Source: Balamuthia mandrillaris (taxonomy: Eukaryota). From it: a stretch of 64,000 nt of DNA. Of the stretch, positions 3,942-53,479 are shown piece after piece. The notes beneath the pieces are model-generated. The model saw nothing but the letters and a program-made list of their open reading frames with translations. It ran no database searches and was not told the origin of the DNA. Position numbers and translations under genes: made by a program. The DNA lies in the NCBI GenBank assembly GCA_031835245.2, contig JAVKOQ020000041.1:124001-188000 (forward strand), given 5' to 3'. Each line of letters begins with the position of its first letter. The stretch's first letter is position 1.

Positions 3942-4004
3942 CATTCAGATGGTACGTCCAATAGACGGGAAATACTGAAGTTGACTCGCTCTTCTTCACA
4001 GTAA
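2075..4004 (+). CDS. METTL18: Histidine protein methyltransferase 1 (METTL18/HPM1), multi-exon
   Basis: Spliced exons give MSLFGGASFSFNFQK...SDLLSGVYEG/GFKQWECS...RVLELGCG...HFQDY...TIPN...FFAGDW...ILTSETIYN...AAKTYYFAVGGG...REILKL; TAA at 4002-4004. Confidence 0.9.
2560..2762. repeat. Compound (CT)n/CTCTG microsatellite inside a METTL18 intron
   Basis: Directly visible run of ctct/ctctg units. Confidence 0.9.
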
Positions 4005-4305
4005 CAAAATGAAAGCAACAAACTTGAAACAAACAAAGGTTTCAACAAGAAGAGGAAAAAAAAAAAAAGAAGAAAAAGCGAAAAGAAAAAAGGAAAATCA
4101 AGAGCGTCTGCTGGATTTGAACCTACGCTGTGAATCATCTGGCATGTCCGATCCATAGGCTGACGTGGCATCATTGGATTGGCCATCTTTTGAATTAAAT
4201 TGACAATCTGATCTCAAAAAAAAAAGGAAAAATAAACAATAAAAGAAAGGAAAGGAAGAGAGAAGGAAACGGTGGTGAGAGTGCAAACAAAACAAACCCG
4301 CAAAC

Positions 4306-4753
4306 ATGACCGAGTTGAGCGCTACCGAATTGGGAGACATGGTTTTTGGGGTTGGTTTTTGTTTGGTTTCTTGCTTGTAAGATTGATGTAATCTTTATAT
4401 TATTATATTATTTTTTTTTGTTCTACTACGCTTTTTTTTATTTTGGTTTTAACTGCTTCATCAAAATCAGACCTATTCCGAAAATTGGGAAGGCAAACAA
4501 GTGCAAGACAGAGGGGATAAGTATCATTTTGAAGTGGAAGTGCCGAAGGGCACGAACAAGTTGACGGTCCGTTACCACCGGCAAGGAGCGCGCAGCCGTG
4601 CCGACAGAGATGAACTTGAGCTGACCTTTGACATTGATAAGGCTATTCAAGAAGAGGTTCCGTTCTTTTTGTTTCTTTTCTTTCAGCCTTTGCTCCGTTC
4701 GCCTTGTCTTATTTCTTCTCTATTCTTTGTCTTTTTTGTGTTCCTTTCTACTG

Positions 4754-4792
<39 letters not shown>

Positions 4793-5078
4793 TTTCGTTT
4801 CTTTCTTTTGGTCTCATGATTGCGTTGTTCAACAGGTAAAAATAACTCTTTACTGTGTGAACGGTGAGGGTCAATACACAGCTTCCAGTGAGCAGAGAAA
4901 CAAACCCGCCATCAACCCCTCCTCGCAGCTTTCCAACCAAGAAATGGTCTGCTTCGTGACTGGCACGCAAATGGTTTTCGGCATTGACATTCCCCACGTC
5001 ATGCTCCAAGACTGCAACCTCCAAAAGAGAAAACTTCGAAGACCTCTCACCGCCGAAGAGATGTCCGTTCGGAAATGA
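4306..5078 (+). CDS. Hypothetical protein, 3 exons
   Basis: MTELSATELGDM / TYSENWEGKQVQDRGDKYHFEVEVPKG...KAIQEE / VKITLYCVNG...EEMSVRK*; phase-compatible GT-AG introns; no family recognised. Confidence 0.7.
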
Positions 5079-5282
5079 ACGAATTCATTCTTCAACCAAA
5101 CTAACAAACTATGACCCTATTCTTCTGTATTTCTGCTTGTTGTGCCGTTCTATTGTTTGTTTCTTTCTTATGGTTTTTTGTTGCTTTTTCTTTGCTTCTT
5201 TTATTTTTTCTTATCCTGTGGCTTTCATTCTTGTTCTTCCACTCAGTCATTTTATTTTTCATTTCCCGTTCTTTTTTTTTTG

Positions 5283-5988
5283 TCACTCCAGATAAACGCC
5301 ATAACTTCCCACAAAGAGTTTTCCCTGCCATCTGCGCCTCTCCTCCTCCGAAAGTTGGTATGTCTCCGCGCAGCTGTTAATCCTCTCCGCCAAGGCCAGC
5401 ACCTCCCGCCTCTCCTCTCCCTCTGCCAAGGGCTGCAACTCCAGGAACTCGCCCGTGTTGAAGCCATTGGTGGGCATGCTCATGGGCTCCAACGCGATGC
5501 TCCTCCTGTTGGGCGGTGTGTAGATCTGCAAGTACGGATAGGCCTCTTGCTCTTGCCACAAGACGATTGTTGGGGTGGATGAAGAAGAGGAGCTCAGCTT
5601 GCAAAGGACTTTGTTGTTGTTGGAGGCGGTGGATGGTTCTTTGTTACCAACGAAGAAGCCGGTGTCGAAGGAGAGGCCGGAAAGGGATTGTTGTTGCATG
5701 CCGGACCACGCACTTCGTTCGCCAGTTGGGATCATCCGTTCGTTCACCAACAGCTGTTCAAATTGCGAGGAAGTCGAAGGTGGCGAAGTAGTAACGGTAA
5801 GACAGAGGTCGTCCAAGGGGATGTTTGTTGGTTCTTCCTTGTCCTCTGCTTCTTGCTCACTCTTGGCCAAAAGTTTGACGTAAGGATGCCATCCATCCCC
5901 AAAAGGCAGGGGCTCTTTACCGACGTTATAGGCCTTTGTTTGGTTCGAGAAGAAAGGGTAGAAAAATGAGAGAGACGAATCAACAAAG

Positions 5989-6024
<36 letters not shown>

Positions 6025-6407
6025 GTGAACGAACGGTGGTGGTGACAGTCAAGCCAGCGCCTCTAACCAAGCGATGGTTGACCTCCACATAGAGCTCAAA
6101 GGGATAGCCCTCGTCCTTGCCGTCAAAGCGATAGCTCAACAGGGCCTGCGCCACGTTCTCCGTGCAGTGCAGGCAGTTTACCTGCATGGTCTTTTTGGGG
6201 AGCAGGCCATGGATGGCGTTGTTGCGGGCGGTCTCGTTGATGGGCAGCTGGTGCTTCTTTCCTGGGGGTAGTTCGTACTCCCCATTGTCCACCCTGTTGG
6301 GCCATGGGATCTGTGCTTCCGATAAGTAACAAAAAAAAAAAAAAAAGGATAACACTGCAAGAAGAGAGAAGCAACAAACCAACTTCAAGCCAGCTGAACC
6401 GACTCCT

Positions 6408-6450
<43 letters not shown>

Positions 6451-6785
6451 ACAGAAAGTAAGAAAAATGTCAGAAAATAAACGCAGTGGGGAAACTTGCG
6501 TGGCAGGGAGCTCTATGACGGACCTTCAGTCTGAAAGATTTCAGCGAGGTCAGAGCTACCGGGGGATGAGGGCAGCGCGAGTTCCAAGACGGTGCCGCCG
6601 AGCAAGGATATCCTGCAGTACGCCCCGTTGGTCTCATCCATAAGGAGCACCGTCGAGTCGTGGGCGCTGCCAGGAAGCGACACCCAACAGGCCTTCATGC
6701 CCTTCAGCTCCGAGGAGGTGTCAGGAGGAGCGCCACCTCTTGAAGTGGAGTTGAGGCGCACGGGAGCAGGAGAAAGCTCCATCAT
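5283..6785 (-). CDS. Aldose 1-epimerase (galactose mutarotase-like) family protein, multi-exon
   Basis: Motifs IPWPNRV, NNAIHGL, YPFEL, PFGDGWHPY and LQIYTPPNRRSIALEPMS. Confidence 0.9.
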
Positions 6786-7475
6786 TTTTTTTTTCCCCCT
6801 CACTTGTGTGTTATTTTGCGTGTCCAACAAATGAAAACTGGGCAAATCCTCCACTCGCGAGTGATGGTGGGCGTGGGTTTCTTAAAACTGACATATGGCC
6901 TTATTTGGGCGTTGCTAAGGATACGTTATGGGTTTGGTTTCAAACGTCCAATCAAAAATCATAAATATACCAAAAATTTTCGAAGAATTTAAATAAATTC
7001 TTCGAAACTAAACATTTTTTGGATCGAAACCGTCTGCAAGAAAACCAAAACCAAAGATTCTCCGATGTGGGCAAATGCCACTTCCCGTCTGCCCGGCAGC
7101 GTACCCAGAGTTCCCGTATCGTGTTGCATTGCACCCTCAGAATAGACGAGTTGATGACGGGGGCAGCCTCGCCTGCAGGTCTAATGCCCCTGTATTTTGT
7201 TTTACTTGGAAATTGTTGCGCATGCGTTGGTAATTCCAGGAACGATTTGTTTCCAAAGTTTTTTTTTTTGGAATTTTTCCGCGGCAATGAAATGTTTGAG
7301 CTGTTTTCTTTTCATTATCTATTAGGGGGTTTGTTAGTTAGTTTGACGAGGAGGAGCACAAATCAGCCACAACCAACCACCACCACGACGACACCAAATA
7401 AACTTTAAATAAACGCACAAACGCAGACGCACGGACAACCCAACCTTTTCTTGCGGCGAAAACCGGTAACGACGA

Positions 7476-10950: not shown

Positions 10951-11557
10951 TGGGCAGGAAAACGACGCCGTTAGCCATATCTGTCATGAAAGGACATCTC
11001 GACATTGCTGATCTGTTGCTAGATCAAGAGGTTTCTCTCGCCTTGTTCTTCTTCTTCTCCTTCTTCTCCTTCTTCTTCTTTTTTCAGTAAACTTATCTCC
11101 ATTACCAAGGGAGTGGATGTTAACATAACCAATGAAGAAGGCCGCACTCTCGTCGCCCAACTATGTTCCACCTTACAAAAGGGCACTTACCAACAACTCA
11201 AGTACCTCATCACCAAGAAAGAAGCCGACGTCACTATCGCTGATGTCAACGGTGAAACGCCACTTCACATCATCTCCAGCAACGATGACCAAGACACATC
11301 AAAAGCCATTGTTAAGATTGCCAAATTGTTGGTGGATAATGGTGCCAACGTTAATGCTGTTACGTTCGAGCAAAAGGACTCTCCTTTGAACTTTGCTGTT
11401 GCCCGTTTCAACGAGCCGCTCATTTTCTTTTTGATGGAAAACGGAGCAAAGCCTGAAGAGATAGTTTCTTCGGATGGCGCCAACATTCTTCATAAACTCA
11501 CGCCCCATATCATGAATTGTGACATCCTTCCTATATTCCGTCTTATTGCAAGTTTGT

Positions 11558-11604
<47 letters not shown>

Positions 11605-12502
11605 GTAGCCCTTTCATTAACTTATTCTCTATCTTTGTCGTTTAGAAAATCCGCAGTTCAAACTAATGGCTAACAAAGTGGATGACCAAGGCTTTACCCC
11701 CTTCCTTCGTTACGTGCAAATGTATGCCTCATGGAATCGACCCGACTTCTCCAACATTATTCAAAAACGAATTAGCGCCGGAGGAGGAAACAACAACACC
11801 TTTGGCCGTGGGAGAGGCAAAGCCGGTCGTTCCGTATGGAACAATTCACCGACTTATAACTCTTCTTCCTCTGTCTCTTCCGTCCCTCCTACCAAAATTT
11901 ACAGGATTATCAAGAAGATATTAGGCTATGAACCAACTTCTACAATCTCTCTTACCATCCAGCAGACAAACAAGATCGAGCAAGACATCCGGGAGGAGTT
12001 CAAACAATTTTTGGTGGAGTTCATCAAAGCGGCTGGCTTGGACGTGTCATTCCCAGTTCAACGCCTTCGCAAGAAGGTGGAATGGGAAGAAAAGCAAAAG
12101 GCAAAGCAAGAGAAGTTATTACAACAAAAGAAAAAACAAAAGGAGGAAGCGCTCAAGCAAGCTGAAGGAGCCGAAGAAGAAGGAGGTGAAGGAGAGGAAG
12201 AGGGCTCAGAATCCGCTCCTGAGGAAGCCGATGAAGAAGAAAAGCCGGAAGAAGATCTTTCCAAGTCTCCCAACTATGCTGCCGGCGTTGCAAAGTATAC
12301 TGCTTTACACTTCCTTGCCAAGAACAGCTCAACTTCGAAACTAGCCAAAAAGTTGATAGACTTAGGAGCTGACGTCAACGCACGAACGGATGAAGAGGAA
12401 GATTCTGCTGTTACACCCTTCCTTATGGCCCTTAACTCTAGAGCTCATGCTATGGTTAGTTTGCCATTTCTTTTTGTGGTTGCATTTGCTAACACATTTT
12501 TA

Positions 12503-12534
<32 letters not shown>

Positions 12535-15500
12535 CATGTGCGACACAAGATTGAGCTATTAATTAAGGTTGTGGACTTAAATGTTGCGGATAAGAATGGA
12601 GAGAGGGCATTGGATGCGGTAATCAAAAAGGACTCTGCCAACTTTAATCTGGTGGAGCGACTGATCGACCTTGGAGTGGAGGTGAACGCCAAAGACAAGG
12701 CTCAAATGACAGCCCTTCACCATGCTGTCAACAAGAAGCTCATCGCAACGGCCACGTTGCTCATCCAAAAAGGAGCCGATGTCAACGCTGTCGATAAATA
12801 CGAGCGCAATTCCCTCCATTATGCTGTCGATGCTTCAACTGGTATTCTTTTCTCCTTCTCTATTTCCGTTCCTTGTATCTTGTTTTTCGTTTTATTTGTC
12901 TTTTCCTTGCTATGTTTAAATCGTTCGGTGTATTCTCGTGAACAGGTGGTGCTGATGCCTCCTTCGACATGGAGGAGCTTTTGTTGGAAGCTGGAGTCAA
13001 TCCCAACAAAGCAGACAAACTGGGCCGCACGCCCATGCACTATGCCTTCATCAAGTTTACCGATAACCACAACAACACGTCACGCATCGACCCCATCGAA
13101 ACCATTTCCAGCCTTTGTTCCCTAGAAGGAGTCGATATTGATCACACGGACAAGCACGGTCGGTCTCCGCTTCATTATGCCTCTCAGAGAGGAGCCACTA
13201 CTTGCTCGCTCTATCTCTTGCAGAGAGGAGCCAATTTGGAACGTTGTGATAGGTTTGTATTGTTTGTTTGCTTCTTTATTCATTAGCATTGTTTCTTCGT
13301 TGTCTTGACCTAATACATATTTAAAAAAAAAACAAAAGGGATAACAACACACCGTTATCGGTGGCAATGGCAAGCTCTCATCCGGATTACAGCATTATGC
13401 TTATCCAAAAAGAGGCTAATGTCAAGCATCCCATTCATTATGTAAACAGGGAGAAGTTGTTGGTACCAAAAGACGTCGACGTGACCTCCAAATCTCTCGA
13501 GGAATTAAGAGAACTGCACGAAGCAACCATGGCTAAGCTCGCGAAACAAAAGAGCGCTTATGGTACGCGTTCAGGAATTTTCGTTTTCTCTTCTTAATTC
13601 AAAGTTGTTCATTTTTGCTTGCTTTTTATTGTTGCAGATAACCCCGTAGAACATGAGAGTGAAGAGTCTGACGATAGTGAGGAAGAGGATTACTCTGAAG
13701 ATGAGGAAGACGACGACGACGAAGAAGAAGAAGAAGGTAGTCAAGGCCAAGAGGATGCCATGTCCATCGTTTCAGCTGTTGCTGACCAGGACGAAGGCAC
13801 GTGGTGGCAACAGATCGAAGTAGAAACCTCCAGAACTGTTACATCTATGTTCTACAAAGCTGTTGTTGCTGGTATCGTTCTCGCTATCTCTATCTATTTC
13901 CTCTCTCCGTCCCCATGCTTTCTCCCTCATTTCTCTGCTTGCTCTCTCGTTTTCTCTGCTTCCCGCCCTCTCTTCCTTGAATACTTATTTCCTCATATCC
14001 TCGTTTTAGAATGGCAAGGAGTAGCCTACATGATGTTAGACGCTGGCTTTGACAAACTCGAAGCCCTCAACGACGCTATCAAAGCCGGCAAACTTCAGCT
14101 ATGCCTCACCCTGCTTGCCAAGATGCGAGACAACAAGATCGTTCAACAGAGCAACCCGGAAACTCATCGCAATCTCATCCACTCCATAGCCATCCACTGT
14201 AGCACATTGGATCAATGGGCAAGCCGTCTCCTGGACAAACTGTTACAACGCGGCGTGGATCCTAATCTCAAGGATGCCCACGGACGTTATCCTCTGCATT
14301 ACGCCTGTAGCAATCACAACGTCGACCTTGCGACTCATCTGTTGAGAGCGGCGGAGACGAAGGAAAAGAAAGAATCCATCACTTGCGCTTTGGACGAGGA
14401 CAATAACACCCCGCTCATCATGGCTTTGCGCGGACATGGAACGCAACCCACGCCTCCTCCTTTCCGTTTAGGTGGAGATTCCTCGTCATACTCGTCACAT
14501 TCCAGTTATGTGCAGTCGGCTTCGTTACGACTGGCAGTGTTGTTGTTGGCTAACAACGCGGATCCCAACGCTCCGTACGTGGAAAAAGATTATCTTCCTA
14601 GAAACGAGTCTAAGCACGATAAAACGAAAGGCACCGCATCTGCTTCTTCGTCTACTTCCACCAAAGGAAAGGGGAAAGAAAAACAAGGACCCAACGACAA
14701 GAAACAAAAGGACGAAGCGGCTCGCCGCAGGGAAGAGAGAGAAGCACAAGCTCACACCACGTTGCTCATTCACGCCGTCCGAAAGAGGGACTTCCGCCTA
14801 ATCCAAGAATTGATCAATCACGGTGCCTCTCTTGCCGGTCAGGATGGCAAAGGCTTCACCGCATTCATGTACTGCGTGCAACGCAACGACAAAGAAATGG
14901 TGGACTACCTCCTGCAACTCGCTCAAAGGCAGCAATCTTCACCAAGTAGATCTGCTGTTGCTAGCGGTGCTTCTCCCGTTCGCTCGTTCCTGGGCAAAGT
15001 GGTTCGGACATTATCCAGCTCTCAGTTGGATGCGTCTTCCGATTTACTGGGTCTTAATGTGCAAGACAAGGAGGGCAAGACCGTCATTCATCATGTGGTC
15101 AGGCCTTTGGAATGGGGCTCTTATGAGAACACAGGCCTACTCCTTGATTTGGTTAAGGCTGGTGCTAATCCTGATATTGCTGATAACTATGGTAAAACTA
15201 TCTTTCTTTTTCTCCTCCCTTGTACTATGTTTACTGTCCCGCTCCCTGCGCTTTTCTTGTACTATGTTTACTGTTCCGCTCTCTGTGCTTTTCTTTCCTC
15301 TTTTTTTCTATTTCTCACTCGGGACTAACCAAAAATCAAAGGAAACACACCCGCATACTATGCTGCTCTGCAAAGTTCGGGTAAGATGTTGCGAGCGCTG
15401 GTCGATAAGTGCAAAGTTAAGACCGGCTTTGGGGACGAGCGGCCCAAACCTGTTCGCCAAGACTCCTTCCTGCCGGTGACTCAATGGGCTAAAGCCAAAG

Positions 15501-17965
15501 TCAACTTTGAGCAGGACGCAGAGACGCTAGTTAACAGGCTTCTCACAATCGACAACGAGAAACAAAAGGTAAAGCAAGAACAGGAGAAAGCTAAGGAAAA
15601 AGAGAAAGAGGAAGAAGAGGAAGAAGATGAAGAAGAAGAAGAAGAACCAAAAGCCAAACGAGGAAAAGGCAAAAGTACAGCTGCCAGCGCAAAGCAGGAC
15701 AAAGGGAAGGAGAAGGATATAACAACCGACATGGATGTTGTCTCTGACGACGGCACAAAACTTACTCTTCAAGAACGTGAGAAGCTCAAGTCTAAAGCCT
15801 CTGAACAGGTTCTCTCTCCCTTATTTCCTCCATTATTTGTTACTTTACTTATTACTTTTTTGCTCTTTTTGAAAGGCTCTTCAACGCCAAACACCAGTTG
15901 TCGATCACGAGTTTGAGCTTTGGCGCAACAGCAAAGTTTACATCAAGAACGAGGGAGTTGCCGGCAAAGAAGTCATCTATGACGTTATCCTCACTAAAGT
16001 TGACGTGGCCAAAGGGCTCTACGGTCAAAACGCGTTCTACAAGATGCAAGTCATTCACAACTTGGTCAAAGACATCTTCATTCTCTGGAATAAGTACGTT
16101 TTCTTCTTCTTCCGTTCTGTCTGTCTTCTTACAAACTCTCAAACAGATGGGGACGCATTGGCGAATCGGGACAAATGCAACAAACTCCATTCCCATCCGC
16201 AGCAGACGCCTGCACTGAATTTGAAAAGATCTTCAAGGCCAAGACTGGTAACTTGTGGGAAAACCGAGATGACTTTGAGAAGATGCCCAAGAAGTTGGTT
16301 CCCTCCATTTTTTCTTTCTTGTTTCAAAACAAATGAATCTAATAACTTTTAAAACAGATATTGGCTTGTTCCCATCGACCGAACTCTTCGCAACGTGAAG
16401 CACTTCTTGAAGCCCTTCACAGCATTGCCGGACTATCCCGATGCAATCTACGACCAACACTTTAGCGAAGCCACTTTTCTTAAGGAACAACGAGCCAAAG
16501 GCAAATTCCACAACAATAAAGTCTACGCTCCCTCCCAACTCGTTCTGCCCCTGCAAGCCACTATCAAGTCCATTGCCAACGTCACGATGTTGACGCAAGC
16601 CATGAAGCAATCCGGAGTGGACACCAACCTCTTACCCTTCGGTCAGCTGAAGAAGAAGACGTTGGAGGAGGCCAAAGACATCCTGCAAGAAATCTATGAG
16701 ATCATAAAGAAGAAAGAGGAGGAGCGCTCCAGCGGCAAGTTGGAAGTGGCGGAGCTTATGGAGTACTTGCAGAACATTGCAGAGCTGAGCAACAAATTCT
16801 ACGAGCTCATCCCGCATACTAACTTTGCTGCTGAGAAAATGGACAGCATTGACACCGAACAGAAAGTTGGCAAAAAGGTTCGCTTTCTTTTTCTCTCTAA
16901 CATCTCTTCTATCTTCTCATTTCATATCTTCTTTCTGTCTTATCTTTCTCTTCATCGTGCTCTTCTCTTCATCGCTCTCTTTGTCGTTCTCTTCTTTCCA
17001 TGCCTCAGTTGGAAATGCTGCAATCACTGGGCGAGTTGGAGATAGCCAGCAAAATATTGTTGGGTGCTCGGCTTCGCATGAAGGAAATGAACCCGTTGGA
17101 CTACTGCTACCATGCCTTGGGCGTTCAATTGGAGCCTATCTCCAAGGACTCGGCTGAGTTTGCCACTTTGTTCCGTTACATTAAGCATGGCTCTCGTGGT
17201 GCCACCTCTAGCGGCCTTGAGGTTACTTGCTACTCTCTCTTCCGCTCCTCTTTCCTTTTATTTTGTTGACCAATGTAAACAGGTGCAATGCATCTACGAC
17301 CTGCAACGCAAAGGAGAGGCGGAGCGCTTCGCTCCCTGGCGCGACAACCCCAACCGCAAGCTCCTCTGGCACGGCTCCTCCCTCTCCAACTTCATAGGCA
17401 TCCTACAGCAAGGCCTGCGCATCGCCCCTCCTGAGGCACCCGTCAGCGGGTACGCTTTCGGCAAGGGCGTGTACTTTGCCGACATGTTCGCCAAGAGCTT
17501 TGGCTACTGCCGCAATTTCGATGGCGGCAAATCGCCCGCCCTTTTGTTGCTGTGCGAGGTGGCCCTGGGGAGGGTCCACGAGATGAGAACGGGCGGCTTT
17601 GAGGACAGTCGTGCTCCTGGCACCGACAGCACCAAAGGTAATATACCTTGTTGTTGTCCAGTTTGTTGCTTCTTTTTATATTCAATAACCAACAAACACA
17701 AAAAACAATAGGATTGGGAAGAGAAGGACCGGACCCGAAGGAGGATATCATTCTGGACAACGGAACGACGTTGCCAGCAGGCAAAATCATTCAATACCGT
17801 GCGCCAGACACGGCCACTCCGCAGGAGAAGCAGTGGGGCAACTACTACTCGCTCGCGCACAACGAGTACATCGTCTACGACGTATCGCAGGTTCGCATGC
17901 GGTACCTCGTGCAGGTCAGGCAAGACGGCGGGGCTGGCAGAAGAAGGCACAGACTCCAAAAGTGA
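7476..17965 (+). CDS. Very large ankyrin-repeat / WGR / PARP-regulatory / PARP-catalytic poly(ADP-ribose) polymerase (tankyrase-like, nematode PME-5-type architecture), many exons
   Basis: Numerous ankyrin repeats (9.8-15.3 kb); WGR domain (FYKMQVIH...WNK/WGRIG...FEKIFKAKTGN); regulatory domain (LPFGQL, LSNKFYELIPH); catalytic LWHGS, GYAFGKGVYFAD, LLCEVALG and HNEYIVYD. Confidence 0.93.
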
Positions 17966-20247: not shown

Positions 20248-21718
20248 TCAAGCTCGAACGTAGCTCCTGCCATCGGCACTAATGCCAAGCCCATCAGCTT
20301 GCATGTACTCAACGCCAACAGTGATAAGCCGAAAGGCTGGCAGCGCGTTGGAGCTTCTTCCCACGCCGTGAAACAAAGTCGGCCAGGAGAGGCACAAGGG
20401 CTTCTTTCCAAAGTCCCAAGACTTGCCCTCCAAAGCCCTTTGCCAGTCCGCGTGCATCTTGGCCAACAGCTTGGGGGGCATGAAGAACTCCGCGTGGATC
20501 CGAACAAACAGATCCTTGGCGTCCAGTTCTTCCGGACGTTCCAGCAGTCCCTCCTTTTGCTCCTCGGTGAGGTCGGTCAGCTCCACAAAGCTCTCGTCCT
20601 CCCCGTTTGCCTCCTTGGTGACTTTGAAGAAGATCCTGTGGAGGTCGAAGGTGGCTGTTTCAGAGGTCACCACAGCGCCATCCTTGTGATGGGCCTGGAA
20701 GGTCGCGCAACAAGGGTCGCTGTCGGACTCGGCTGTGATGAGGGTGCCCAGCGGTACTTCTGGTTTGTCAAAGGCCTGCTCCAACGTTTGCAGCAGAGAC
20801 TGCATCCAATGCGGACCCAACACCTACAAACAAAGGAGAAAAATGAGTGCTAGCCATGGGTGGAATGAAGCAGGGGCAGCTGAAAAGCAGGAAAGCAAGT
20901 GAAAGCATTACCACGTCCACCGCCTCTCCCTCCTCTCGAAACTCGAACCCCATCAAGAGACCATCGATGCTCTTGTTGACCGGAGTTTTCAGTCTGAGCT
21001 CCTCGATGCGGGAGGCAAAGGGCTCGTCCTTGGCGTAGTGGGGCCTGGACGTCGAGGAGAGGAAGAGCGGGTTGTCCTCAGAGATAATCTCGCTGACGCC
21101 AGAGCTGGCGGAGCTGCTGACAGCTAGGTACTCCCTTGGACGAAGCGGATGAAGCAGCAGGAAGCGCTGAGGCCAGCGGTCGTCGTCGTAGAAAGGTGCC
21201 TTGTCCTCCTCGTCCTCCTGCTCGTTCTCCCTCCCTCCAAAGGGCAGCAAACCATGCAACACGTGCCTTTCCGCAAGGATGAGCGCCTCCTCCAGGCCTT
21301 GTTCTTTGTGCTCATCCGCCCAGGGCCATCTATTTATGAACTGCACGGTGTGGTAAGGACCGAACCTCGTTCCACCAGCCATCATCATGTGCAGCACACC
21401 AAGGTTGGCATGCGCGGCCTCAAGGACCCGTTGGTGTTGCGGCTCATCCACTGGCACGCGAAGCACAAGCTCAACGCCATAGAAATGGCCGCAGCCAAAG
21501 GTGACCAAGCAACGGTGTGGAGGCACAGCGAAGCCCGCTCGAGCAGAGAGAGCGTCCAGGGTTGGCTTGTCCTTCAGGTCCACGACGAACAAACACAGCT
21601 CCTGGCCCACGCTCTCGGCCACATCGCCCAAGGGCACGTGTAACGCATCGGCGAGACGTTGTTTGAACCGCAAGCGAGAAGTAGCGTCCGTGGCCTGCTT
21701 GGCCTTTGTGTTGCCCAT
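20248..21718 (-). CDS. Hypothetical protein, 2 exons (intron about 20824-20911), possible N-myristoylation (MGNTKAK)
   Basis: Two long GC-rich ORFs joined in frame by a gtaatg...ttgtag intron. Confidence 0.75.
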
Positions 21719-22116
21719 GTTGTTGCACTTCTGACTTGTGCGCTTGGTGGCCCGCTCAGCAACAACGTGAACTCATTAAAATCTCCTCGGGCCTCCTTCC
21801 CTCTGCCCTAGCCGTTTAATTTGCCTCCCTCCTGTGGTTTGTCTGTCCATGCTTGGAGGCTCCGACGCAACGGACAAGGATGCTCGTTCCGGCAGCACTC
21901 CCAGTTCCGTGGAGCAGCACCTCCACCAGCCAGGTTCTGCTCCTTGTCGGGGAGTTTGTTTAGCGTCCGCCGACCACCTGCAACAGCTCCGTCTAAAAAC
22001 AAGGTCTGAGGCAAACAGAGTGAACGGGACAGACGCCCCAACCTGGTGATACTATCCACCAGGTTTGTCGTGGTGTTTGGAACCGTACACCAAGGGAGGC
22101 AACGAATACCAAGCGT

Positions 22117-22395: not shown

Positions 22396-23619
22396 ATGCA
22401 AATCTACGTCAAGACCCTCACGGGAAAGACCATCACCGTTGAGGTAGAGTCCATGGACGACCTCTCCGAGGTCATGCAAAAGATACAGGACAAGGAGGGC
22501 ATCCCTCCCGACCAGCAACGCCTCATCTTTGCCGGCAGGCAGCTGGAAGTGGGGAGAACCCTGGCGGACTACAACATCCAGAAGGAGAGTACGCTGCATA
22601 TGGTTTTGCGACTTCGTGGTGGTCCTTCTACCTTTTGTTTCGCTGTGGTAAGTCTTCTTCGTTCTTTGTTCTTTTAACTTTGCTCTTGCTTATGTTTCTT
22701 TGAAAAAACAAGGGAGGAGCAAAAGACGGGATTAACTTTCGTCAAAACATTGAAAGGGACCTGTTGCCAAAGGCTGCTTCCCTCAGCTACGAAGGCCTCT
22801 TCTACGAGTACTTCTTTGACACGGGAGACATTGACGAGCTGGAAACCAAAGCAAGAGAGAGGAATGCCCTTTTCTATCCCTCCTACTCCTTTGCTTGCTC
22901 TCCTGGTGAGTGATACTTGTTCTGTTGACTCTTCTTCGACGCTTCATTGTGAAACTGTTATTGACCTTTGTTGTTGTGTGGTACCCCAGATCCTATCTCA
23001 GGAAAGCCAGAGTACTTTATGAGCGTTGGCCTTAACTCTACCATTGAGGAGGACAGTTTTCAGCGTCTTCCTCTCAACTTGGTTCTTGTTCTGGTAACTC
23101 TTTCTTTCTTGTTGTCTTTTGCTTGCCTCTCGTTTCTTTCTTGTCCTTTCTTGTCGCTTCTTTCTTGTCGTTTATTTCTTTCTTATCGTTGCTTATCGTT
23201 TCTTACTTTCTTTCTCACCATTTATCTACCAAAAGGATATCTCTGGTTCAATGAGCTGTGCATTTGGAGACGGAGGGCTAGGCAAATTAGAAGTGGCCAA
23301 GACGGCCATCATCTCATTGCTTGGCCACCTCAAGGAGAACGACCGCGTGGGCATCGTGTTGTTCGATACCGTTGCGGAGCACCTCCTCCCTCTCACAAAG
23401 TTTAAGGACATCGACATGGACAAGCTGAAGCGCCAACTGCTAGATGTTCACCCTAGAGGAGGAACGAGTATGGAGGTGGGATATAGGGCCGCCACGAAGG
23501 AGCTGCTGCAACTGGGCAAGTTGAACATTGAAGAGAGTGAGAACAGGATCATCTTCTTGACGGACGACCAGCCCAACGCAGGTACCTATCACCCTTGTTT
23601 ATTCTTCCCTATTTCCTCT

Positions 23620-23669
<50 letters not shown>

Positions 23670-25788
23670 CGTGCTAATGCCTTTCCTTATCAAAACGAAC
23701 AGACACTCATCACCCTGAGGGATTTGCCAATCTCGTCAAGGAAAATGTCCCTCACGGCATATTTACCTCGTGTTTGGGTATTGGCTCTGACTTCGACCCA
23801 ACACTAGTGGAGTTTCTCATGAAGGTCAAAGGCTCTAACTACTACACCGTCAAATCTGGCAAAGAATTCACCGCAAAGCTGGATGATGAGTTCGACCTTA
23901 TGGTTTCTCCTCTGCTCTTCGACTTGAAGCTTTTATTTAAGGCAGAGGGATGGGATATTGAAAACGTTCGTTGATACTGTTCTTTCTTGTTCTCTTCCTT
24001 CTTCTTCTCCTTTTTCTTCTTCGTGGTTGTCCATTTTGATAGCTTTATTTTTTCAGATGTATTTAATCTATTTTCACGCTGCTCTTATCTTCTTCAGGTA
24101 TATGGCTCTCCTCAAAGTGTAAATAGCAAGGATGAGCTGATGAATGGTTGGCTGACTACAGTCCTTTTTTCTCTTCTAAGAGCAAGTTATTAACGTTAGC
24201 TTATTATCGACAGTGGCTTCTCTTTTCCCGTCGAAGAAAGACGAAAGTGGACAGAACAAGGGAGGCATCATTATTTTGAAGCTTCGCCAAACCTCTGAGG
24301 ATATCTCTTCCTCCGTTATTAACCTCGACATTAGCTACACAGATCGTTCCAATAAGGCTTATGGTAACACTCTCTTTCTCTTCTTTTCTTCTTTAATGTG
24401 GCCTGTTTATTCATTGAGGCCCTGCAACAGAGGATAACACCGTAGTACAGCTCCCACTTGAGGAATTGAAGAATGGAGAGTCGAAAGGCTATTATGGCTG
24501 TTCTGGTCTTAGAAAGGCCATACTTCTCTCTCGCTTTGTTACGCTGATAAAACATTGGTCCGACGACGAGAGAACTGGCGGTACTTGCTCTCTCCGCTCC
24601 GCCGTAAGCTATTCTTAGTTAGCAATCTAAAATTCCCTGTTTGAAATAGATGCCCGGACCAAACCAACTATTACTAAAGAAACTGGCTTGCTATTGTCTA
24701 CCAAAGAGGCTGATGGCAAAACAGTTGATTACAGTACCACTCCCTTAGTAGTTTCTCCTCATTACCGCTCACTCCTTAAGGTATCTTTCATTTTTTGCTT
24801 GTCTTTCCGTATGAAAACCTTAAGTTGGAACAAATAAAGGCATTCAGCGATCATTTCGAGGAGCAAATAGATGAGCTGGGAGATGAAAACCTGCAGAAGG
24901 AGGTGGAGATCATGCAACGCATCATATCCACGCCTACAATCCCTTCTAGCATCCATCATGAGCATCAGGACGCAGGTTCCGATACTTGCTTCCGCCATGC
25001 CCTCAACATGTATTTCCAGAAACCACTCGTGAACGACCCCTCCTTCTTGCTACAGTACAGCGCGCTTGTTAAAGTACGTAATACTGTTGTGTATTGTTGA
25101 GAGAGAGAGGGAGAGAGACCCCAGAACTATCTGCCTTAACCAAAAAATGACACAAAAACGACTACAGAAAGCAGCAGGGAAAATAAAGGAACTTATCTAC
25201 GAAAACTGTGCTATCGACTTTTATGGCGGAGCAGAGAACGTGCCCGCCGATGAAAAGAAGATGGAAGATGAGCGCTCCGATCTGGCTTCCAATCCGGATC
25301 TCTTTGGCTACTTTGAGATTTTCAAGCAGACCTCTCCCAGAGACTTGCTCAACATGATCACCAAAGCGGGGCTCAAGGAGCTCTCTCCTAGTCAATGCTT
25401 GTTCCTGTTGCAGTTCCAGATGAGAACAGACGAGAAGACCGGAAAGCCGCACCTCGTCTACGTGCCTCATCGTTTGTACCATCGTTACGCTCGAAGCAAG
25501 TTTGCGGAGGACAAGAAGCAAACAACGGAGACATTCGTGGAGGCTTTGGAGAAAGAGCCCTCTATTAGTTCCATCTTCCTGGCCCACATCGAGAGCGGTA
25601 AAGCCCACGCGTTTGCTGCTCAGAGATTGGAGGACAGCGACGGCGCTTGGTGTCTGTTGGACAGTTTGAGGACGCACCCTTGCCTGGTGCGCACCACGAA
25701 GGACCTCTGGGAGAAGCACGAGTATGCTGGAAGGGCCTCCGTTATGGTGGCCAGAGACCCCAACAGGCCTTCCCTGGTGCTTATCTAA
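22396..25788 (+). CDS. Ubiquitin - VWA (MIDAS) - Josephin-like protease fusion protein, multi-exon
   Basis: 76-aa ubiquitin at 22396-22623 with no stop; continues PSTFCFAV / [14 protein letters not shown]...[16 protein letters not shown] motifs VL/DISGSM, GGTSM, IIFLTDD; C-terminal SIHHEHQ...TCFRHALN and HAFAAQR...WCLLDSL; all introns phase-compatible by manual splicing. Confidence 0.85.
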
Positions 25789-25821: not shown

Positions 25822-26892
25822 TTATCTCTTCCATGCAGAATAAGAACAACGAGACCAAACGGTTTCTTCCTCCTCTCCCTCTTCCTGAGGGCATCCGTGC
25901 TGCAGAGCATATTGCTTTATCTCCGGCCACTGCTGTGCAGCGCGCCAAGTGTAGGCATCCCAAGTACAGCCGTGCTGATGCGCCCACTTGAGCACCTCCA
26001 ACTGCCCATTCTTGGCGGCCTGGTAGCTCGTCCTCTCGTCCCAAGGACAACCGTTCTCCCTTGCCCACCGCAGCACCTCCAGATGACCGTGTTCAGCAGC
26101 CAAGGCGCAGGTCCACTCCTCCCACTCGCAACCGTTCTCTCTGGCCCACTGCAGCACCCCCAGATGTCCTTGCCGTGCTGCGCTGTACGAGGTCCTCTCG
26201 TCCCAAGGACAACCCACAGAACGAGCCCACTGCAACACAGGCAAGTGGCCGTTCTCGGCGGCGGCTGCGCAAGTGGTGGCATCCCAGGGGCAACCGTGTG
26301 CATGCGCCCAGCGCAGCACGTCCAAACGGCCGTGTAGCGCGGCATAGAAGCATACCAGTTTATCCCATTCGTACCCAACCCCACGAGCCCACTGCAACAC
26401 CTCCAAGTGCTTGGCCGCGGCTCTGCACACCCGCCGTTCATGAAAGGGCTGAAGGCCCTGCCCAAAGACCCACTTCAGCACTGCCAAATGGCCGTTGCGT
26501 GCTGCCTGGTGGCACGTCCTGCTGTCCCAGGGGCAGCCTTGCGCCCTTGCCCACCGCAGCACTCCCAACTGGCCCTGCCCTGCGGCGGCTGCGCAGGTGC
26601 TGGCGTGGTGCAGGGGATACCCTTGCGCGAGCGCCCAAAGAAGCAAAGTGGCGGAACTGCAAGCCCTGCGGGCGTACAGTTTGCGCCTTGCCTCGGGAGG
26701 ACAACAAGCGAACCAGCGCCTACAGGTTCTAGCGGCCACGCCCACCATGTCCTTGGGCAGCCATCCCAACACCAGGCACACCACCTCCGCAGGTAACGCC
26801 TCCACTTCTGTCGGGATGGTCAGGAGAGTGCTTAATGTCGACACATACAAGCCAACGAAAACATCACGACCCTTGGGCGAACAAGACGGCAC
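25822..26892 (-). CDS. F-box-like + ankyrin-like (GCPWD-type) repeat protein, intronless; start codon uncertain
   Basis: LPAEVVCLVLGWLP...AARTCRRW F-box-like segment, then about 9 repeats of AA.NGHL.VL.WAR..GCPWD..T. Confidence 0.85.
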   Translation of the reverse strand: MPSCSPKGRDVFVGLYVSTLSTLLTIPTEVEALPAEVVCLVLGWLPKDMVGVAARTCRRWFACCPPEARRKLYARRACSSATLLLWALAQGYPLHHASTCAAAAGQGQLGVLRWARAQGCPWDSRTCHQAARNGHLAVLKWVFGQGLQPFHERRVCRAAAKHLEVLQWARGVGYEWDKLVCFYAALHGRLDVLRWAHAHGCPWDATTCAAAAENGHLPVLQWARSVGCPWDERTSYSAARQGHLGVLQWARENGCEWEEWTCALAAEHGHLEVLRWARENGCPWDERTSYQAAKNGQLEVLKWAHQHGCTWDAYTWRAAQQWPEIKQYALQHGCPQEEGEEEETVWSRCSYSAWKR

Positions 26893-26927
26893 CCTACCAG
26901 CGAAGAAGAGGTAGATAGTTCAACAAC

Positions 26928-32389: not shown

Positions 32390-34992
32390 TTACACTTTGT
32401 TGGCACTCGTTCGTTTGCCTCTTCGTTGAAAGCCTTCCAAGTACCATGACCCGCTTGTGGCCATTGAACTCTTTTGTGCTGGTGGTGTTGACAGTGGTAA
32501 TGGCGAAGAGGGAGACTGCTCCGGAGAAGGAGAAGGAGAAGGAGAAGAAGAACAAGAAGCGAATCGGAACTTTCTTGAAAGGCAATCGCGCACCTCTTCG
32601 CTGACCAAGATGCGACCAACCCCACAAGACTCACGCAAGCAATCCACTCGACGCACAGCATCGCCATACACTTCCACTGAGGTTCGTGGCAAAAGTCTTG
32701 TGGGCCTTTTTGCATACCAGAATGAGAAACCGAAAGAAGAGAGGGAGAAGATTTTGTACCCAAGAGTGCCAACAATGACTGAGCCAGAATGTATACCAAG
32801 CCGCAGTCCAAAGACTATGCGCTTAGTACCCGAAGAACAAGAAGGGCTCGACGAAGAAGGAAAAGGAAAAGGAGAAGATTCAGGAGAAGCAGCATTTGAC
32901 AGTGAGCATGGTTTTCGTCGCTGACTAACCAAATGACTTCCGGACGTGGAGAGAGAGAATGTTGTTTGCTCTGAACTCTCTCTTTTCATCTGCATCGCAA
33001 ATGCTGTCATGACAGACTTGAGCCTGCCTTTCAACGTCAACGCAAACGAGGCCATCATCTCTTTTGCCTGTTGTCTGCTTTGTTGCTCAAACTCTGCTTG
33101 CTGCTCTCCAAGAGGCTCTCTGCTATTCTTCAAATTGTCAGAAGGACTTTCGTTGGAGCGTGAACGTCTTCGCGTGAGTATTCTTTGTTGGGGCGGTCTC
33201 GCTTTGGGAGGAGAAGCAGCAAGCAACTGAAGCCTTCTTCTCTCCGCTCTTCGTTTCTTCTCGGCTGCCTTCTTCAGCCGTTGCAATTGCCCCAACTTCT
33301 CTTCTTCCTCCCTGATTCTTCTCGCTGCTGAATCAGTTCTGTGCATTCGTATCTCTTTGGGAGAAGAAGAAAAGGACGCTTTCTTTCCAAAGGCAAGCTT
33401 GGAAGAGGAGAAGCTAGAAGTTATCTTCTTTGTCGCGGTAGACGTTGAGGTGTTGCTCATCCATGGTTCGATGGGGGAGGAGATAGCTGCTTCAAAGGCT
33501 GCTTGGCTTGCAGAGGAGGATAAGGCGCGCCCCTTGTCACCTATCGAGGAATACTCTTCATCCTCTTCGATGAGGCTGTACAATGTACTTGATGGCAGAA
33601 TCAGCTGGCCAAATGAATCTTTTGGATCTCTGTTGATGGTGATGATAGAGAAGTAGAAGTATAAGAGAGAAATCATAAGAAGAAGAAAGACAAAAGATCA
33701 AGAAGCAAAAGAAGCCAAATGGAAAGGCGTACTCTTCTGGAAAGGATGGCAATGGAGCGGACTTGCGCCATTCTGAGTAAGGCTGAAAGAAGGCGGGATA
33801 AGTGGCAGCTCTTCCTCTGTCAGAGGCAGCAGAGTCGGAAGTGGCGATGGCCTCTGGATGGAACAGCAACGCCTTTTCGTCCTTACGCATCCTCTCCTCC
33901 TTCAATCGCTTTGCTTTCATCTTGGCTCTTCTCACCCGCAACGTCAGGTTGGTCTCCGAGTAACTATTCAACTGGCCAACAAACGGAGCGGAACGCAGAG
34001 AAAGCAGAGGGTTGTTCATCGGTTCGTCCTCATTCTCTCCTTCCCGTCCGTCGGCTGACTGTGGATGAAGAATTGCTCGCGAGAGGCCTCCCACGACAAG
34101 ATACTTGCCTCCTCCCATGGAAACCTTTTGAAGGGAAGGAAAGCAGGCGAGCGTGTCATCGAGAAGGTTGAAGATGACGTTGAGCCTCTGGAAGGCGCTT
34201 TCGGTATCCTGGCAGCTTTCCACAAACTCATTGCACCCCATGACCTCTATACTGCAAATGGAGACGTCGTTGAATCTTTGAGGTTTTGGAGTTTCCCATT
34301 TTTTAGCCCGTTTGTTGGTGTCCTCCTCGTCGTCGTCGTCATCATCGACGTCTTCGACTTCCTCATCCTCTTCTTCGCCCAGTTTTGCCTTTTCCTCTTC
34401 CTCTTGCCTAAGTCTCGAAGTTTCTCTTCCCCTTTCGTCCGCATTCTTTTCTTTTCCCTTCTCTTTGTCTTTCAAGGCTTTGAGGCTGCCTCCTCTCTTT
34501 CCTCTAACCCCAACCCCTCGGCGACCGTTGGTAGATATACTGCTGCTCTCCAGGTGCTTAGTTTGGCCTGGAGGGCTGCCGGTATGTTGCATTTCTCCCA
34601 GGGTTCGGCTTCCTTTCCTCTTCATTGGTGCTGCAGTATTGAGTGGTTTCTTGACAACAGAACCTTTCTTTTTGGTTTGCTATGGTTGTTGGTTTGGTTG
34701 TGCAGAGAGTACGGTTGATACCAGCGCACGCCTCCCTTTCCACACAACCAGCAAAAAAATAAATAAAAAAATAAAAAAAAAAATAAGGTCAGCCGCCTGC
34801 TCCACAATTAAGCAAAAAAAAAACCAGGAGGAGTTGTTTGGCGGTGTGTCGGTTCGACTTCCCCCGATGCCGGTTACTCCTTATCTGGTTCTCTTTCGCT
34901 TTCGGCGTCTGCCTGGAAGCCTCAGGGTCTGGGTTGCCCGGATGAGTCCGTCTCTTACACGATTCTTTTGCCCAAAATGCGGAACCCCACAC
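32390..34992 (-). CDS. Degenerate class III adenylate/guanylate cyclase-like protein with large low-complexity insertions; 5' end unclear
   Basis: FNDVSICSIEVMG, LNVIFNLLD, KVSMGGGKYLVVGGL, LRLGIHSGSVIVGTLG, VYGDAV, GRILVSEEV follow the cyclase fold order. Confidence 0.7.
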
Positions 34993-36906: not shown

Positions 36907-39813
36907 TCAAGAAAAAGGGGCGTAAAAGAAGGAACACTCCAAGAGGCACTGCCACATGAAGGTGGCGTGCGGGGAGGGCACCATCGAGGCAATGCGCCTC
37001 ACGGGCAGCCACGTCACTTGCGAAGAAGGCAACAAATCTTCCATCAAGGCTATTGATAGTAAGTCAGTAAACGAACAAAGCAACAAACAACGTGAAAGAA
37101 AGATGGAGCACCTTGTTGTTGTTGGCTGAGTTGATCTTCTTCCTGTTTTTGTGCAAAATAGAGCCGAAGTTGCAAAGAGTCTTCCGTAAGGTTGATGGCA
37201 AATTGTTTGCGAAGCTGCTGTTTCATCTCCACAATGCTCTCTCCCAAATGTCGGCTATCGTTCACGTACAATCGAGCGAGAGCAGCACGGCGGTCATCCG
37301 AGAAGACAAATTCTAATCTATGTTGTCTTCCCTCGTCCACTTTGACCAACCCCTTCCTTTCGTTAAGTGAGTATTTTCCTTCGCCTCTTTCATAGTCGTC
37401 ATCATCTCCATTCTTTTGCTTTTGCGTTACGACTTGTATTTCGACTTCAGCTCCTCTCGGAAGTTGTCCCACCTCCAAAAATGCAAACGAGAAGTTTCGT
37501 TCTTGTTCTCCTTCTTCAGCATTCTCGCTGTATCGCCATTCATCCCAAAGCCTCTCCACGATAGCTTTGCCTCCTTGTAGATCCGTAAGAAAGCAGCTTG
37601 CCCACAAAACTTTATCTGGAGAGGAATTTACAGCTGCCAAAACTTGAGCGATGTTATGCAATACCATTTTTGTTTGTCCTTCTACTCGTTGCTCCAGGGA
37701 TAGATTTTCTCTATCTGAGGAAGTTAGTTGCAGCGTAGGAGGATCGAGTCCAATTTGTCCAGCGAGATGAGCAATGCGCTCATCGATAGTGCAGGCTTGA
37801 CTGTAGGGTCCTATGCAAGCTGCTGCCCACCGAGAAATGCTTTGTACGTGTAATGCTTTATTTCTGTAAGGAGGTGACTTAGTTTAAGTTGTTTTTTATG
37901 GAATAGAAGAAATTAACGAGAAAGAAGAGAACAATCCCAAACCTTTTCGTAGAGGAAGAATGTGGCCTAACTCCTATCACTTCAATCATCGCTTTAGAGC
38001 TCAAATCCAGTTGGACACATAATCTATCTCGATAACAATAATAAGAACGAGAAATAAGATTAAAAAAAAAAAAAAACAAAAGACCTGCTTGGAGGATTGT
38101 GAAGACCAAAGTAAGTCTTGTAAACAGCATTTGCCTCTGCAAAATCGGCAATATCCTGCAGATACATCGATACAAAGACAACATTCTCCATACTTAAGTC
38201 TTTTGCCAACAATATCCCTGATAACGAAAACACGATATTTAAACATTAAAAAAAAAAAAGACAAAGAAAAAAAAGAAAAGTAAGCAATTTAAAGCAGAAA
38301 ATGTACCTTGAAGAGATGAAAGAACTTGATTCATTTGTAGAGTTACGGATGATGAGTGTTCATCTGTTGTAAGGCCTGCAACGAAGAAGTGAGAATGGCT
38401 CTCCTTAAACTTGGCCAAAAGTGCATCATCCAGCTCTCGACTTTCAATCCGTTTCTTGTTTTCCTCTTTTTTTTCGTTTTCTTCTTGTTCTTGCTCTTCC
38501 GTTGTTGATACCATTTCTATTTTGGCAGTAGCAACTTGAGTTTCTTCTGAGGACATAAGATGTGCATTTCTGTCTTTTTCTTCCAAGTGATATTTGGTTA
38601 TTCGCAGGTAACCCACCGGAGCAATGGCATCATCCGAGTGGATGATAGTTTGCATCTCATCTCTATAAAGTAATAATAATACAAAGGATGAGAAACAAAA
38701 AACAACAAGAAGAAAAGACAAAGAGAAGAACCGACATGACAATCTTTTTCTTGAAGAGAGGACAATCCAACGTGAGTGTTTCGTACTCACCTCCTTCACC
38801 ACAGACGTTACAGCCGTACATATTTTTCTATTATCGTAAATATGTTTTAGTAAAGAAAGCTAAAACAAACAAACAGAAGAAAACGATACCAGCTTGCACA
38901 GATAAGGATAGAGAGCGGTGATGGACTTGCCCAAGTGTTTATCCGGGTGCAACCCCATCGCTGCCACTTTGATGAGAATGGCGTCTATGGGTTGGGCGAT
39001 CATTTCTTGAAGGAGAGTCTCTTGGTCCCTCCTCCATAGATAGGCAAGCGACACTAAACCTAACCTGGCACAACTTATAAAACAGGTTGGTAACGACGAA
39101 GAAGAGGATGGAGAAGGAGGAGAAGAACAAGACAAGAAGAAGAAGAAGAAGAAGCAGAACAAGACCATGACAAACAAGAAGAAAGAAGAAAGAAGAAAGA
39201 AGAAAGAAGAAAGAAGAAAGAAGAAAGAAGAAAGAAGAAAGAAGAAAGAAGAAAGAAGAAGAGAAAAGAAGAAGGAACAAGGACAACAAGAAGAAGGACA
39301 AGAGACGTACACATTCTCAACGCGATACCGCTGATAGTCACTGAGAATGGCACCAGAGGAAACGGCTTGCACGGAGGGAATGGCCTCCTTCACTCGCCGC
39401 AACAGCCAGTAGAGACTCTCCACTTCGTCGGCCTCCTCCCTCTTTGCCTCCTCCTTTCGCTCGTACTGCAGCGACTGTTGCAGAGCAGAGCCGCGGATCT
39501 CTCCGCGAAACAGCGGAACGCCCATACACTCCGCGTAGGCATCCAACACGTTGTGTCCCACCGTTTGAAACATAAAACTGTCCAACTCATCTGAAATTGA
39601 TGAAGTTTTGTTGAGCGATTAACGACAAAAAAAAAAAAAAAAAAAAAAAAGCAACAGAATACCTTCGGAGGATTGCGTTGTTGATGTGGTGTGCGATGGG
39701 ACCTGTGGAGGACGAAGGTTCGCCAAAGCGACGATCTCGTGACCATACTGCTCGCACTGCAACATGTTGTAGCAGCTATCCTTGCCACCACTCACCAACG
39801 CCACCACTTTCAT
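36907..39813 (-). CDS. DPH6: Diphthine--ammonia ligase with C-terminal RidA/YjgF-like domains, multi-exon
   Basis: MKVVALVSGGKDS, DSFMFQTVGH, GAILSDYQRYRVENV, LAYLWRRDQ, CGEGGEYETLTLDCP, CIGPYSQA, LPRGAEVE. Confidence 0.93.
39178..39262. repeat. (GAAAGAA)n heptanucleotide repeat in a DPH6 intron
   Basis: Directly visible. Confidence 0.85.
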
Positions 39814-46221: not shown

Positions 46222-46547
46222 ACAAAAAGAGACCCAAGCTGAAAAGACGACGTTTCCTTAATATTAATATTCAACTCACAATCCTCTACAGAAACCATAT
46301 GAAAGGACTAAAGTAGAGAAAGAATGCAACTCTCTTGCGTGCTTTTGTGATGGTGAAGGGGCTTGCAACCTTGCACAGCCATGATCCCGGAGGTGCTGCG
46401 TTGGTTGAGGGAGAACGGTATGCCCCTTTAGCGGTGTCCGCAAAAAACCATTTTTGAATTTTAGTTGGTCGATCACAAATGGATGATAGATCCGTGACGA
46501 CATGTGACATTCAAACAAAAAAAAAAGAAGAAAGAAAAAAAAAAAAG

Positions 46548-48521: not shown

Positions 48522-48597
<76 letters not shown>

Positions 48598-51140: not shown

Positions 51141-51192
<52 letters not shown>

Positions 51193-52852: not shown

Positions 52853-52889
<37 letters not shown>

Positions 52890-53434: not shown

Positions 53435-53479
<45 letters not shown>

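Follow-up and report, generated by a model that had tools for sequence, protein, structure and literature searches.

The window analysed here, a stretch of 64,000 nucleotides (nt) from contig JAVKOQ020000041.1 of the amoeba Balamuthia mandrillaris, carries on its forward strand a gene (22396..25788) in which ubiquitin, a von Willebrand factor type A (VWA) module and a Josephin-like domain are joined in one spliced reading frame. The gene consists of 11 coding exons (22396-22647, 22713-22905, 22990-23093, 23236-23581, 23703-23965, 24098-24146, 24214-24363, 24431-24580, 24650-24780, 24840-25073 and 25168-25788) and runs from the ATG at 22396 to the TAA at 25788 with zero internal stops, encoding 830 amino acids (aa). 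Ubiquitin occupies aa 1-76 (22396..22623; Pfam PF00240, E 1.3e-28), a prokaryote-type VWA module aa ~78-575 (22627..24926, exons 1-10) and the Josephin-like, papain-fold domain aa 584-830 (24951..25785, exons 10-11). A first-pass annotation, made from the sequence alone, had proposed that the ubiquitin open reading frame (ORF) has no stop after LRLRGG; indeed, Gly76 is encoded at 22621-22623 and the frame continues. The same annotation had the VWA protein read straight on into the Josephin-like part. The frame does continue there in exon 10, but a short linker (aa 576-583) intervenes. Each domain junction falls within an exon (exon 1 holds ubiquitin and the start of the VWA module, exon 10 the end of the module and the predicted catalytic Cys), which makes the fusion independent of splice choice.

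The gene is eukaryotic, and its introns are short and pyrimidine-rich. All 10 were found as GT-AG joints in contigs of the public runs X1 and X2, and 4 of them also in X3; these runs, taken for RNA by guess, come from another strain, and their contigs are mostly 90-99% alike. Among the listed runs holding the stretch, none is recorded as RNA. The two introns named in the first-pass annotation are where it placed them: intron 1 (22648..22712, 65 nt) appears as a joint in X1 and X2, and intron 10 (25074..25167, 94 nt, within the protease domain) in X1, X2 and X3. For the last joint the entry reads 25072>25168, separated by a single letter that differs; it corresponds to intron 25074-25167, the strain of the runs having a changed base at 25073. 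Use of the alternative acceptor at 25124, which had been named as a threat to the model, would give a stop after 4 codons, and this acceptor is absent from the listed joints. One contig of 964 nt covers exons 1-5 and another of 2016 nt covers exons 4-11. In a fourth run (X4, of which 3% was read), raw reads covered exons 4, 5, 10 and 11 thinly and no intron joint exceeded the threshold; its reads on the ubiquitin exon came mostly from other ubiquitin genes. A protein annotated as 'Ubiquitin [Balamuthia mandrillaris]' at NCBI (KAL6074867.1), found with the last exon as the query as 1 of 998 candidates (proteins of 362-2000 aa), is likewise 830 aa long and colinear, with 33 differences in 830 positions (96%). 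In the strain comparison, 27 of the 38 classifiable changed codons, counted over the ubiquitin and VWA part only, were synonymous. The open frame of 11 exons and the joints at every intron support the single polypeptide that had been proposed. On the opposite strand, an F-box-like/ankyrin ORF (25822-26919) has its stop 33 nt past the stop of this gene; transcript contigs of the gene extend to 25823-25855, so that a 3' overlap between the two may exist.

The ubiquitin moiety is identical to PDB ubiquitin at 62 of 76 residues (14 differences, counted from the alignment). It retains the Leu8/Ile44/His68/Val70 patch, Ile36, Arg42, Arg72, Arg74 and the terminal LRLRGG. Two lysines are lost (K27M and K48R), and Pro77 directly follows Gly76. 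With an intact Gly-Gly and an in-frame partner, the protein is a ubiquitin fusion. In yeast, Pro after ubiquitin impairs release by deubiquitinases (DUBs) and K48R slows degradation of the fusion (PMC8605321). By analogy with these yeast effects, the fused ubiquitin may be released slowly and persist in this species, where Pro77 and K48R make it a likely built-in substrate or pro-domain.

The VWA module comprises the VWA core, flanking beta strands and C-terminal helices. Its metal ion-dependent adhesion site (MIDAS) is intact, as had been claimed: the DxSxS motif (D184, S186 and S188; 23236..23250) lies in a Pfam VWA/VWA_2 match and is kept in the Soliformovum protein described below, and T260 (23464-23466) and D293 (23563-23565) complete the set within a VWA fold. 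The module has homologs in archaea and bacteria, where the proteins carry the label 'Ca-activated chloride channel homolog'. Among 7,995 candidates scored there were 2,290 matches, and the best 119 others share the MIDAS and are 40-44% identical over 99-100% of the ~500-aa module. Their alignments begin directly after ubiquitin (at aa 78-82 in 88 of 119) and stop directly before the protease domain (at 571-577 in 114 of 119). Unlike the Balamuthia protein, these homologs mostly carry a hydrophobic stretch ahead of the module (108/119 by a crude hydropathy test) and end soon after it (78 of 80 prokaryotic genome loci, within 27 aa); the protease domain was found in none of 102 prokaryotic VWA loci. 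Ubiquitin thus occupies the position of the prokaryotic membrane or export leader. The peak 19-residue hydropathy here is 1.37, short of a leader, and the absence of such a leader suggests a cytosolic location. Gly-Gly just before the module occurs in 16 of 114 homologs and is not a family trait. Around 80 prokaryotic VWA loci, the 6 recurrent neighbours scanned were all of lineage type (nitroreductase, ECF sigma, phosphorylase, 5'-nucleotidase). A full-length AlphaFold model with an alignment for the VWA part only was confident in the middle module, with a predicted local distance difference test score (pLDDT) <50 for ubiquitin and protease; the VWA model resembles Catenulispora 4fx5, Sulfolobus ArnA/ArnB and ITIH1. 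The module likely supplies metal-dependent target binding.

Employing a profile of 56 members of the protease family, we obtained six PDB matches at E <= 10, all six of them Josephins, with ataxin-3 at E 5.6e-4; a single-sequence phmmer search of the PDB gave a tag artefact only. No other Pfam family is matched by as many members as Josephin (PF02099; 16 of 56 at E <= 0.5), and of 33 members listed singly one, P0152 (26.7 bits), exceeds its gathering cut-off of 26. The protease domain modelled from the family alignment reached pLDDT 97 and a predicted TM score (pTM) of 0.93. Foldseek placed ATXN3L-ubiquitin (3o65) and BpJOS (9f5t) at the top. A wide structural search of 48,161 chains returned only 5 with Z >= 8, all Josephins; Z was 9.4 for PaJOS, 9.0 for BpJOS and PcJOS, 8.3 for JOSD2 and 8.1 for ATXN3L, with root-mean-square deviations of 3.9-5.0 over 137-167 residues. 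Clusters of the ESM Atlas gave Josephins as leads only (feature score 0.78; TM 0.50/0.63, below the Atlas naming bar). A predicted complex of the protease domain with its own ubiquitin, in which the alignment was unused, scored 0.00 and is taken neither for nor against binding. The Josephin-like fold read from the sequence is borne out by the profile and fold searches, which rank Josephins first, although Pfam itself failed to recognise the Balamuthia domain. The C-terminal domain is homologous to Josephins and divergent; having missed both the Pfam cut-off and the gatekeeper residue considered next, it is not filed as a conventional Josephin DUB.

The predicted active site comprises an oxyanion Gln589 (24966-24968), Cys596 (24987-24989), His771 followed by Ala772 (25606..25611) and a third catalytic residue, Asp789 (25660..25662). 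Counted over the family members that cover each position, these are Gln in 28 of 29 aligned members, Cys in 29/29, His in 47/47, Ala in 46/47 and Asp in 44/47; Gln589 and Cys596 align with the ataxin-3 motif and Asp789 with the ataxin-3 Asn. The order and sequence context of Gln, Cys, His and Asn/Asp are therefore those of Josephins, as the first-pass annotation had read them, and the Cys codon is where it was placed in the 11-exon model. The residue after the catalytic His is Ala in 46 members and Ser in one, and is aromatic in none of the 47. His followed by an aromatic residue marks Gly-Gly-cleaving DUBs, and the W126A form of JOSD2 is dead (PMC7391069); with this gatekeeper absent from the family, a conventional cut after Gly76 is doubtful. 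Of the label 'deubiquitinase', the fold and the catalytic order stand, but its conventional sense is in doubt. The Simkania enzymes SnJos1/2 also carry Ala after His (PMC10643670) and are slow clippases that ignore ubiquitin-7-amino-4-methylcoumarin (Ub-AMC) and ubiquitin-propargylamide (Ub-PA; PMC10643670; bioRxiv 2024.07.24.604956). Such probes could by analogy give a false negative here. Clippases are defined by a cut after Arg74 and by reaction with Ub(1-73)-PA, and in that family the stretch from the Cys helix to the first strand (the helices after Cys) sets the cleavage mode (bioRxiv 2024.07.24.604956). This cleavage-mode region is enlarged in the present family: the Cys-His spacing has a median of 173 (25 members) versus 97-133 in characterised Josephins, which leaves ~40-75 extra residues between Cys and His. 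Within the insertion there is a family-specific motif, Y-x-P-H-R-x-x-H-R (aa 722-730; 25459-25485), whose His729 is kept in 44/44 members and Arg730 in 43/44.

The three-part layout extends beyond one protein, as does the fusion of VWA and protease, which recurs in several further eukaryotic sequences. A Trinity transcript from the transcriptome of Soliformovum irregulare (P0147) encodes a ubiquitin-VWA-protease of 799 aa, 36% identical to the Balamuthia protein over aa 3-829. Soliformovum belongs to Evosea and Balamuthia to Discosea, so that the architecture is found in two amoebozoan phyla. The ubiquitin of P0147 shares 39 residues with that of Balamuthia; LRLRGG is kept, Lys48 is also lost, and Glu follows the Gly-Gly. 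Altogether, the protease family comprises 52 clusters at 50% identity (E <= 0.001), with 12 matches in a finer clustering, and ranges over Amoebozoa, one foraminiferan and environmental sequences; members named are from Soliformovum, Mastigella, Paradermamoeba, Pelomyxa, Reticulomyxa and an MMETSP transcript. In 11 of the 32 members with a domain start, cluster-mates included (3 of the 11 weakly), the C-terminal helix of a VWA module lies directly upstream. On an intron-bearing metagenome contig (L001:117-1326), too, the C-terminal helices of a VWA module continue into this protease domain; the contig was the one locus recovered from metagenomes by a narrow pattern scan. The same kind of scan found the domain neither in viral contigs nor in GTDB genomes, a result from narrow patterns that does not imply absence, and BFVD gave no match to the protease domain at E <= 0.001. 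The protease tree, made by a quick method from 26 of 61 rows (coverage >= 180 residues, cluster-mates dropped), resolves little and intermingles fused with stand-alone forms. A single clade of four eukaryotic VWA modules was neither rejected nor shown (approximately unbiased test, p 0.52, long branches). From these trees a single origin is possible; we claim no donor and no order of events. Two shorter members, P0152 and P0165, with a Cys-His spacing of 137-140 and the highest scores against Pfam Josephin, may form a bridge to canonical or viral Josephins.

For the function of the fusion, we give roughly even chances to a non-standard protease of the ubiquitin tail. The Josephin-like domain would be an active cysteine protease, predicted to act on the C-terminal tail of ubiquitin; its cut would be non-standard, probably before Gly-Gly as in bacterial clippases, or slow and free of Gly-Gly gating. 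The fused ubiquitin would likely be the built-in substrate or pro-domain of the protease, and the MIDAS-bearing VWA module would likely aim it at a target. Ubiquitin is the suggested substrate because of the homology to Josephins and the LRLRGG-ending ubiquitin in both complete fusions, and a shifted cut is suggested because the aromatic gatekeeper is missing. A more specific version is unlikely: a clippase family encoded by protists, which would be the first to come from a eukaryotic genome itself and in its fused form would be a self-contained zymogen. The tethered, DUB-resistant ubiquitin would then sit in an enlarged S1 site and be clipped at Arg74 when the VWA module engages its target, and this clipping would switch on irreversible ubiquitin removal.

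Several points weigh against a non-standard ubiquitin-tail protease of this kind. Catalysis is a prediction, made from conserved residues. Pfam Josephin (PF02099) matched neither the exons nor the full protein, the Foldseek TM scores by query (0.35-0.41) amount to a moderate fold match, and C39 and staphopain peptidases (Z 7.4-7.6) follow close behind the Josephins. His-Ala is the state of most non-DUB cysteine proteases (PMC7391069), and the two solved clippases, PcJOS and BpJOS, need an aromatic residue (F285 and W167, respectively; bioRxiv 2024.07.24.604956); His-Ala is therefore not a specific pointer to clipping. Since broad clippase activity is toxic to cells (bioRxiv 2024.07.24.604956), a clippase encoded by the host would need tight control. 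The two complete fusions both have ubiquitin, but they are only two, the other fused members being incomplete N-terminally. In 15 of the 32 members with a domain start, Met lies within 45 residues upstream and no VWA tail is present; some of these may be cut short, but because they appear stand-alone the protease does not seem to need the fused parts. At the Soliformovum junction, with Glu after Gly-Gly, ordinary DUBs should remove ubiquitin, which fits a plain cleavable leader. As for the transcript, none of the contigs of X1-X3 spans exon 1 to exon 11, and in X3 the contig of exons 10-11 is ~9x deeper than the upstream pieces, which may reflect 3' bias or a shorter transcript.

The best placed of the alternatives, though doubtful, is a papain-fold enzyme that descends from Josephins but now acts on a different substrate (a ubiquitin-like protein, some other protein or a peptide, or else an acyl or amide bond), with ubiquitin only as a leader or degron. 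It would account for the His-Ala shared with non-DUB cysteine proteases (PMC7391069), the large family-specific insertion with its conserved His729 and Arg730, the many stand-alone members and the non-DUB papain folds that trail by only ~1-2 Z units. It is at odds with the intact ubiquitin tail in both complete fusions and with the characterised Josephins, for those shown to be active in the papers cited all act on ubiquitin (PMC10643670; bioRxiv 2024.07.24.604956).

We consider it rather improbable that the protein is a conventional Josephin DUB, cutting after Gly76, on a VWA adaptor, its ubiquitin being either an ordinary leader that housekeeping DUBs take off or a tag of the proteasome/p97 type. 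The eukaryotic Josephins tested are all conventional (bioRxiv 2024.07.24.604956), ATXN3L-ubiquitin came first in Foldseek, ubiquitin fusions are common in protists (PMC6332867) and the Soliformovum protein has Glu after Gly-Gly. Yet all 47 members lack the aromatic gatekeeper without which JOSD2 loses all reactivity (PMC7391069), and Pro77 would impair ordinary release (PMC8605321). An artefact of the gene model (ubiquitin, VWA and protease being three genes) or a pseudogene is highly improbable: the lack of a contig over the whole gene and the guessed RNA nature of the runs leave it some room, but the intra-exonic junctions, the splicing of all introns and the same protein in an independent strain and in a Trinity transcript from another phylum already contradict it.

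The protein can be set beside several known systems. It shares with the eukaryotic Josephin/MJD DUBs (ataxin-3, ATXN3L and JOSD1/2; PF02099, MEROPS C86; 3o65, 1yzb, 6pgv) the papain-type fold and, in the same order, the N-terminal E-x-Q...C motif, the His strand and the W-x-x-L-[DN]-S-L strand. It differs from them in having Ala instead of Trp after His, a Cys-His distance of ~173 versus 105 and no Pfam match, and in being fused to ubiquitin and VWA with no ubiquitin-interacting motif reported by Pfam. The bacterial Josephins and clippases (SnJOS1/2, BpJOS 9f5t, PcJOS 9fn4, PaJOS 9g7g; Hermanns et al., bioRxiv 2024.07.24.604956) are its best or tied-best structural matches (Z 9.0-9.7), with a Cys-His-Asp triad in common and, for SnJOS1/2, the same His-Ala (PMC10643670). 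Unlike these, it is the product of an intron-bearing eukaryotic gene rather than a secreted effector, carries its own ubiquitin and is 16-17% identical in structural alignments. Protist ubiquitin fusions (Sibbald et al. 2019, PMC6332867) and yeast ubiquitin fusion degradation substrates (PMC8605321) similarly have an N-terminal ubiquitin in frame with an unrelated protein; the difference is that a candidate ubiquitin protease forms part of the partner here. The terms VWA, von Willebrand and deubiquitin- do not occur in the main text of PMC6332867, as far as accessible.

An architectural analogy is offered by the U-box-VWA-Vwaint-Vint proteins (Burglin 2008, PMC2362128), which also combine a ubiquitin-system domain, a VWA domain and a C-terminal processing-type domain, lack a signal peptide and are patchy in protists. 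In contrast to those, the N-terminus here is ubiquitin itself, the C-terminus a papain-fold protease and not Hint, and the VWA belongs to another subfamily; the ends are not homologous. The Balamuthia protein has no Pfam match to Vwaint or Vint at E <= 10, whereas proteins on two contigs of a viral collection, L093 and L099, match both. On L099, a ubiquitin ORF (4001-4216) stops after 71 residues without the RLRGG tail, ~1.1 kb upstream of a U-box-VWA-Vwaint-Vint gene (5367-7370). On L093, a ubiquitin match begins at 4001 (4001-4640, with no ORF of at least 60 aa there) and is followed by an intervening ORF, which by its motif appears to resemble a homing endonuclease, and then by a U-box-VWA-Vwaint-Vint gene (5024-7408).

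Elsewhere in the window, a divergently oriented frame of 334 aa (20768-21772, reverse strand) has a weak SUFU-like match (E 0.05). On the forward strand, ankyrin-repeat frames and, after them, the regulatory and catalytic domains of PARP (11023-17708) are possibly one ankyrin-PARP gene, a long series of SPRY, ankyrin and BTB frames occupies 46458-55781, and globin and cytochrome b5 domains share a single frame (58268-59089). On the reverse strand, diphthamide synthase adjoins an RidA/L-PSP domain in what is likely one gene (37053-39618), and two frames at 32393-34679 have weak adenylate/guanylate cyclase matches.

The first-pass annotation knew of no described protein with this architecture, and our literature searches, with most subscription papers and bioRxiv supplements outside reach, gave no description of either the architecture or the protease subfamily. 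The fusion is real, spliced, conserved and apparently undescribed, and its activity is predicted. It reveals a divergent Josephin subfamily missed by Pfam, and with it a conserved layout that equips a candidate ubiquitin protease with a ubiquitin of its own. Screens filtered on the aromatic gatekeeper would pass over this family. The ubiquitin clippases listed in the accessible part of a 2026 review are bacterial only (PMC13720258), and the human Josephins tested had no clippase activity (bioRxiv 2024.07.24.604956). As far as the literature searches go, the present protease, if it turned out to be a clippase, would be the first of eukaryotic origin. An amoebal clippase, if true, would bear on the origin of the bacterial enzymes of amoeba-dwelling Chlamydiae and on whether irreversible deubiquitination is used by eukaryotes at all, and might provide a new tool enzyme. 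The protease may also interest inhibitor work, since its closest named match belongs to an amoeba that is pathogenic to humans and the human Josephins are only very distantly related to the domain.

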